From the NCBI RefSeq assembly GCF_988242995.1, contig NZ_OZ547043.1: DNA of 64,000 nt; one strand, given 5' to 3'. Position 1 is the stretch's first letter; each line of letters opens with the position of its first letter. Under the pieces are notes generated by a model. It did not search any database. It was not told the DNA's origin and was given only the letters and a program-made list of their open reading frames with translations. A program made the translations under genes and the position numbers. Shown in pieces: positions 63,567 to 64,000 of this stretch.

Positions 63567-63671
63567 ACTGAGAGCACAAAGTTTCCCGTGCCAACAGGGA
63601 GTGTTATAACGGTTTATTAGTCTGGAGACGGCAGACTATCCTCTTCCCGGTCCCCTATGCCGGGTTTTTTT
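63567..63671 (+). ncRNA. gadY: GadY small RNA
   Basis: Sequence actgagagcacaaagtttcccgtgccaacagggagtg...cccctatgccgggtttttttt matches remembered GadY, ending in intrinsic terminator; antisense to the gadX 3' end. Confidence 0.8.
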
Positions 63672-63688
63672 TATGTCAGAGTAAAACT

Positions 63689-64000
63689 CTATAATCTTAT
63701 TCCTTCCGCAGAACAGTCAGTGCCGTAAAAATTCCCTTGCGCAACAATACTTGCCGCCGAGTCACGGTTCGACAATCCCTGCGCCGATCGCTCCTGATAC
63801 TCTGTGGGCGTCATCCCATAATAATTTCGAAAGACGTAAATGAAATACGACACGCTGTGATATCCACAGGACACTGCAACTCGCTTAATTGAAACCCCAT
63901 ATATAACAATAAGTTGTAAAGCACGCTGCATCCTACACTCAGTAAGCAACTGTGAATATGACGTACCTTCTTCGCGCAATTTTTTCTTTAACAGGCTTGG
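63689..64000 (-). CDS. gadX: 3' portion of AraC-family regulator GadX; start lies beyond the window end
   Basis: C-terminal AraC-type HTH region (YGMTPTEYQERSAQGLSNRD...); ORF still open at the window edge. Confidence 0.8.
   Translation of the reverse strand, partial: PSLLKKKLREEGTSYSQLLTECRMQRALQLIVIYGVSIKRVAVSCGYHSVSYFIYVFRNYYGMTPTEYQERSAQGLSNRDSAASIVAQGNFYGTDCSAEGIRL

Follow-up and report, generated by a model that had tools for sequence, protein, structure and literature searches.

The segment at positions 63567..63672 on the plus strand of the window (the whole 64,000-nt stretch of DNA that was analysed) is, judging from its sequence, the intact gadY small RNA gene belonging to the acid fitness island of Escherichia coli, an already known feature. 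When aligned with gadY of K-12 MG1655 (b4452; NC_000913.3 3664864..3664969, 106 nt), it was identical at 106/106 positions, and a direct string comparison likewise showed no mismatch. The Rfam model for GadY (RF00122) matched window positions 63564..63677 (+) over model positions 1-114 of 114, scoring 150 bits (gathering score, 45) with an E-value of 1.2e-32. All of the aligned bases were those of the consensus, and the same match was obtained again when the entire window was searched against Rfam. The original prediction had recognized GadY on the plus strand at this place and had described it as a known feature, and both statements are borne out by the model match and by the identity with the described K-12 gene. 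The predicted start, 63567, coincides exactly with the annotated 5′ end of K-12 gadY. The predicted end, 63689, is not the 3′ end of GadY; it marks the first plus-strand base of the stop codon of gadX, 17 nt beyond the sRNA. The literature gives a length of ~105 nt for the full-length form. Opdyke's work of 2004 reportedly described GadY species of roughly 105, 90, and 59 nt.

The gene lies within the gadX-gadW intergenic region (63321..63688, minus strand), the gadW-proximal part of which includes the divergent gadY/gadW promoter region. On one side is gadW (62592..63320, minus strand), an ORF encoding a 242-aa AraC-family regulator and located downstream of gadX in the transcript that they share; gadW occupies the equivalent position in K-12 and in the swine isolate CFSAN018748. 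On the other side is the 3′ part of gadX, the cis-target gene (63689..64000, minus strand), identified by the NCBIfam GadX equivalog NF007432 (profile positions 173-274 of 274, E = 1e-60) and by a RefSeq gadX annotation under the match. Its TAG stop codon (CTA on the plus strand) is at 63689..63691 (-) and is preceded by 102 sense codons at 63692..63997, the ORF exceeding the window. The synteny is the canonical mdtF-gadW-(gadY)-gadX, in which gadY runs on the opposite strand with its 3′ end directed toward the gadX stop codon, and the order mdtF, gadW, gadX, gadA is common to the RefSeq annotations of K-12 and the closest genome.

Between the 3′ end of GadY and the gadX stop codon is a spacer of 16 nt (63673..63688), which belongs to the proximal 3′UTR of gadX and has the same length in K-12. 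The original prediction of a distance of about 18 nt was thus approximately right. Its description of GadY as an antisense overlap of the gadX 3′ end applies to the 3′UTR, that is, to the intergenic part of the gadX-gadW transcript, and not to the gadX coding sequence, which GadY does not overlap. The predicted preservation of the cis-antisense arrangement was upheld, with gadY opposite to and between gadX and gadW in its canonical position. A gadX transcript reading through to gadW would contain a perfect complement of GadY (63567..63672), starting 17 nt downstream from where gadX stops. On the minus strand, a terminator scan detected no terminator-like site from the gadX stop codon to gadW, which is consistent with read-through of gadX transcription into gadW. 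All of the required elements of the cis-antisense arrangement are intact in the sequence. Near the sRNA, the only difference from K-12 was at position 63678 within the 16-nt spacer (A here, T in K-12); three further differences were found in the gadW-proximal spacer.

The window carries the acid fitness island, with slp, dctR, yhiD, hdeBAD, gadE, mdtEF, gadW, and gadX, and a chu haem-uptake cluster sits between dctR and yhiD. Because this cluster is inside the island, the host is a chuA-positive, non-K-12 E. coli. An Rfam match to the shuA/chuA 5′UTR thermoregulator was observed at 48010..48041 (-), scoring 60 bits where the gathering score is 58. A 380-nt locus was 100% identical to that of CFSAN018748 and ~99% identical to those of K-12-like strains. 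The identity with CFSAN018748 is claimed for these 380 nt only, as an ungapped comparison over 31 kb gave 13774 mismatches, presumably arising from an indel. Other Rfam matches were recorded in the window. ES205 matched 57713..57784 (+) with 105 bits, corresponding to the 3′ 72 nt of K-12 GadF (b4718); the "hypothetical protein" CDS that the RefSeq annotation of CFSAN018748 places opposite this sRNA is probably spurious. Two AgrB matches, at 37542..37625 and 37776..37859 (+), with 98 and 106 bits, respectively, would be the agrA/agrB antisense RNAs beside dinQ, a type I toxin gene that is annotated near arsR and gorA in the closest genome. Lastly, a full-length match to the Hfq-binding RNA STnc490 was found at 20623..20746 (-), with 145 bits.

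The MFE fold of GadY consisted of three stem-loops and agreed with the Rfam consensus structure. Stem-loop 1, at the 5′ end, is a nested, interrupted helix (63567..63613, +); stem-loop 2 has a 7-bp stem and a 7-nt loop (63618..63638, +); and the third (63646..63664, +) is the hairpin of an intrinsic terminator. Here, the terminator scan identified a G+C-rich hairpin of 6 bp (CCCGGT/GCCGGG) followed by a T8 run at 63665..63672, so that the intrinsic plus-strand terminator named in the original prediction is indeed present. It was the sole terminator-like site in 63200..64000 when both strands were scanned. Read in the gadX sense, this hairpin has A8 before it and AAGAGG after it, with no U-run, and it is consequently not bidirectional. 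The fold was not more stable than those of shuffled sequences (z = -0.73), and fold stability therefore constitutes no evidence either way. Neither a four-lineage Escherichia alignment nor the three records of a genome scan (both described below) could lend covariation support to the structure, since GadY is invariant in them except for a 1-nt insertion and covariation cannot test its structure. Two GGA motifs occur in the RNA, at 63598..63600 in stem-loop 1 and at 63624..63626 at the stem/loop junction of stem-loop 2.

Upstream of the gene, a putative -10 hexamer (TATATT; 63555..63560, +) was read 6 nt before the +1 position (63567), together with a weak candidate -35 element (CTGATC; 63532..63537, +). 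Weak -35 elements are usual for RpoS-dependent promoters. The TATATT hexamer was invariant in the four Escherichia lineages and the columns adjacent to it varied. A scan for consensus sigma-70 promoters did not call a gadY promoter site, which is unsurprising because the gadY promoter has been described as RpoS-dependent (PMC11230228). Our prediction is that gadY would be transcribed from its own RpoS-dependent promoter, uncalled by the sigma-70 scan, with its 5′ end at ACUGAGAGC and the TATATT hexamer 6 nt upstream. According to previous reports, gadY is induced by RpoS upon entry into stationary phase and not by low pH (PMC11230228), and its promoter is regulated by AppY (PMC10057817), by ArcA (PMC11230228), and by GadX and GadW, whose binding sites are treated as known (PMC11230228).

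Earlier work places gadY on the strand opposite to gadX and gadW, in the interval separating them, and reports that its RNA binds Hfq (PMC11300174). In the passages of PMC11230228 and PMC10783499 that cite Opdyke 2011, GadY directs an RNase III-assisted cleavage of the gadX-gadW co-transcript that results in stabler gadX and gadW mRNAs. PMC10783499 is inconsistent regarding the nuclease, with RNase E in the text and RNase III in a figure legend; we chose RNase III over RNase E, after the title of the primary paper. A cluster of RNase III-derived dsRNA also maps to gadY (PMC7373196). By analogy with K-12, from the literature on which its activity is carried over, the intact gadY of the window very probably works in the same way, by cis-antisense processing of gadX-gadW RNA. 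The RNA would be transcribed from its own promoter, RpoS-dependent according to the literature, and would end at its own intrinsic terminator. The resulting ~105-nt GadY would bind Hfq and pair perfectly with the gadX 3′UTR, which is the gadX-gadW intergenic segment of the co-transcript, and the duplex would then be processed by RNase III and at least one other nuclease. This processing would split an unstable gadX-gadW RNA into gadX and gadW mRNAs that accumulate, and the additional GadX and GadW would raise expression of the genes for glutamate-dependent acid resistance. For this locus, the promoter specificity, Hfq binding, duplex cleavage, and effect on mRNA levels are expected from the literature. 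What is observed in the window itself is the identity, position, and strand of gadY, its terminator, neighbors, and conservation, and the lack of a terminator on the minus strand. Nothing in the sequence was found to argue against either the identity of GadY or this mechanism. The original prediction that the arrangement stabilizes gadX mRNA has literature support and can be refined to RNase III-assisted processing of the gadX-gadW co-transcript, to which roles in trans are to be added.

Among 5426 complete E. coli genomes analyzed in silico, 5412 had a match of 99% identity or more to the 106-nt GadY query. The adjacent upstream non-coding 146 nt reached at least 99% identity in 3362 of these genomes and 95-99% in 2026. 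GadY had no match in 14 of the 5426; one of them, KFu015 (NZ_CP147130.1), retains no more of the gadW-proximal spacer than its first ~60 nt, suggesting that gadY and gadX were lost by deletion. Species-representative genomes were scanned with an exact 20-nt core of GadY, a search that diverged homologs would escape; it returned three records, labelled as E. coli (two) or Escherichia sp. (one), and all three had full-length Rfam GadY matches. In the alignment of four Escherichia lineages, a single GadY column of 107 varied, owing to a 1-nt insertion of A in strain E69. By comparison, 14/67 columns varied upstream and 8/16 in the spacer that separates GadY from the gadX stop codon, and the difference between GadY (1/107) and its non-coding flanks (22/83) was significant (Fisher p = 3e-8). 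The C-terminal tail of GadX also varied among the lineages aligned. In E69 (CP089930.1; L005 11874..11980), the inserted A falls in a single-stranded CACAAAG segment and the rest of GadY is unchanged. The GadX C-terminal tail of this strain is strongly divergent (ending ENFRVRL before the stop). Loss of the E69 gadX stop codon, with the ORF running into the GadY terminator, was considered and rejected, as translation showed a divergent tail with its own earlier stop codon.

This pattern bears on which function of GadY is under selection. The main selected function could be exerted in trans, with GadY regulating many mRNAs in an Hfq-dependent manner and/or sponging CsrA, and with the cis effect as one role among others and possibly a secondary one; we consider the chances of this reading to be appreciable, if somewhat below even. 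It would account for a GadY that hardly varies beside flanks that diverge fast and a GadX C-terminal tail that differs among lineages. Since any substitution changes both strands of a cis-antisense pair together, near-total invariance of GadY needs a constraint beyond pairing with gadX. Candidates for such a constraint are a broad set of trans targets, contacts with CsrA and Hfq, and precise recognition by nucleases. Previous reports point in the same direction, in that Hfq complexes are rich in GadY together with other mRNAs (PMC11230228), GadY pairs with sdiA mRNA (PMC11300174), and GadY titrates CsrA, leading to biofilm formation, in the portion of PMC10057817 that cites Parker 2017. The two GGA motifs, the second of which lies at a hairpin loop junction, would fit the reported CsrA titration. 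Nevertheless, the cis mechanism, for which the literature provides direct genetic evidence, can coexist with a role in trans, and the invariance may instead reflect what the cis reaction itself needs for recognition by Hfq or RNase, or the narrow phylogenetic range that was sampled. The more exclusive proposition, that a trans or protein-binding role and not pairing with gadX is what selection preserves in GadY, is one that the conservation pattern allows us to put forward only tentatively, as a shade less probable again.

A further reading is that selection on the conserved block acts mainly through the minus-strand gadX-gadW mRNA, in which it would serve, for example, as an intrinsic processing or stability element, and that the plus-strand transcript is incidental. 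The conservation data are silent as to which strand is selected. However, the block starts exactly at the 5′ end of GadY (63567) and stops just past the plus-strand terminator, the T-run of which is functional on the plus strand only, and an invariant -10-like hexamer is found at the correct distance upstream of 63567. Moreover, in K-12 the plus-strand RNA is annotated as an sRNA, has been detected experimentally, and binds Hfq (PMC11300174). Selection on the minus strand alone thus appears very improbable. The weakest reading, that the region encodes a small protein instead of or besides a regulatory RNA, draws on two mechanically called ORFs that overlap it, 63514..63609 (+, 31 aa) and 63657..63728 (+, 23 aa), and was rejected as having a negligible likelihood, because the mechanical scan found no ORF of at least 20 aa contained in 63567..63672, the first ORF having its start 53 nt upstream of position 63567 and hence not lying on the sRNA, and the second starting inside the terminator hairpin and continuing beyond the terminator.

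Processing of the gadX-gadW co-transcript in cis is accordingly retained as the explanation of the locus, and gadY is here an annotation point that leaves current understanding unchallenged. In the closest RefSeq genome gadY was unannotated, and in the other RefSeq genomes sampled it was absent from the features under the match. Recording the gene is therefore useful, as a real and intact sRNA is missing from the RefSeq annotation. Taken as a whole, the locus confirms that the gadX-gadY-gadW post-transcriptional module in the acid fitness island has been kept complete in this chuA-positive strain, which is not K-12.

Compared with K-12 gadY, the gene described here is alike in RNA sequence, flanking genes, strand arrangement, terminator, and 16-nt spacing from the stop codon of gadX; the strain differs in that the host is non-K-12 and carries the chu cluster, and the GadY RNA itself shows no difference. 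Among other sRNAs, GadY resembles SraG, which lies opposite rpsO-pnp, and the RyeA/SdsR pair, in that each is an sRNA opposite an mRNA or intergenic segment with which it forms a perfect duplex that is a substrate of RNase III (PMC5029454, PMC7373196). Neither SraG nor RyeA/SdsR shares sequence with GadY, and unlike theirs, the outcome ascribed to GadY is positive, in that processed gadX and gadW mRNAs accumulate rather than being repressed. GadF (ES205) and ArrS resemble GadY in another respect, as they belong to the same acid fitness island and to the RpoS-linked acid-response circuit (PMC11230228). They differ in origin, GadF being derived from the gadE 3′UTR (sense strand) and ArrS lying antisense to the 5′UTR of gadE, and both are unrelated to GadY in sequence.
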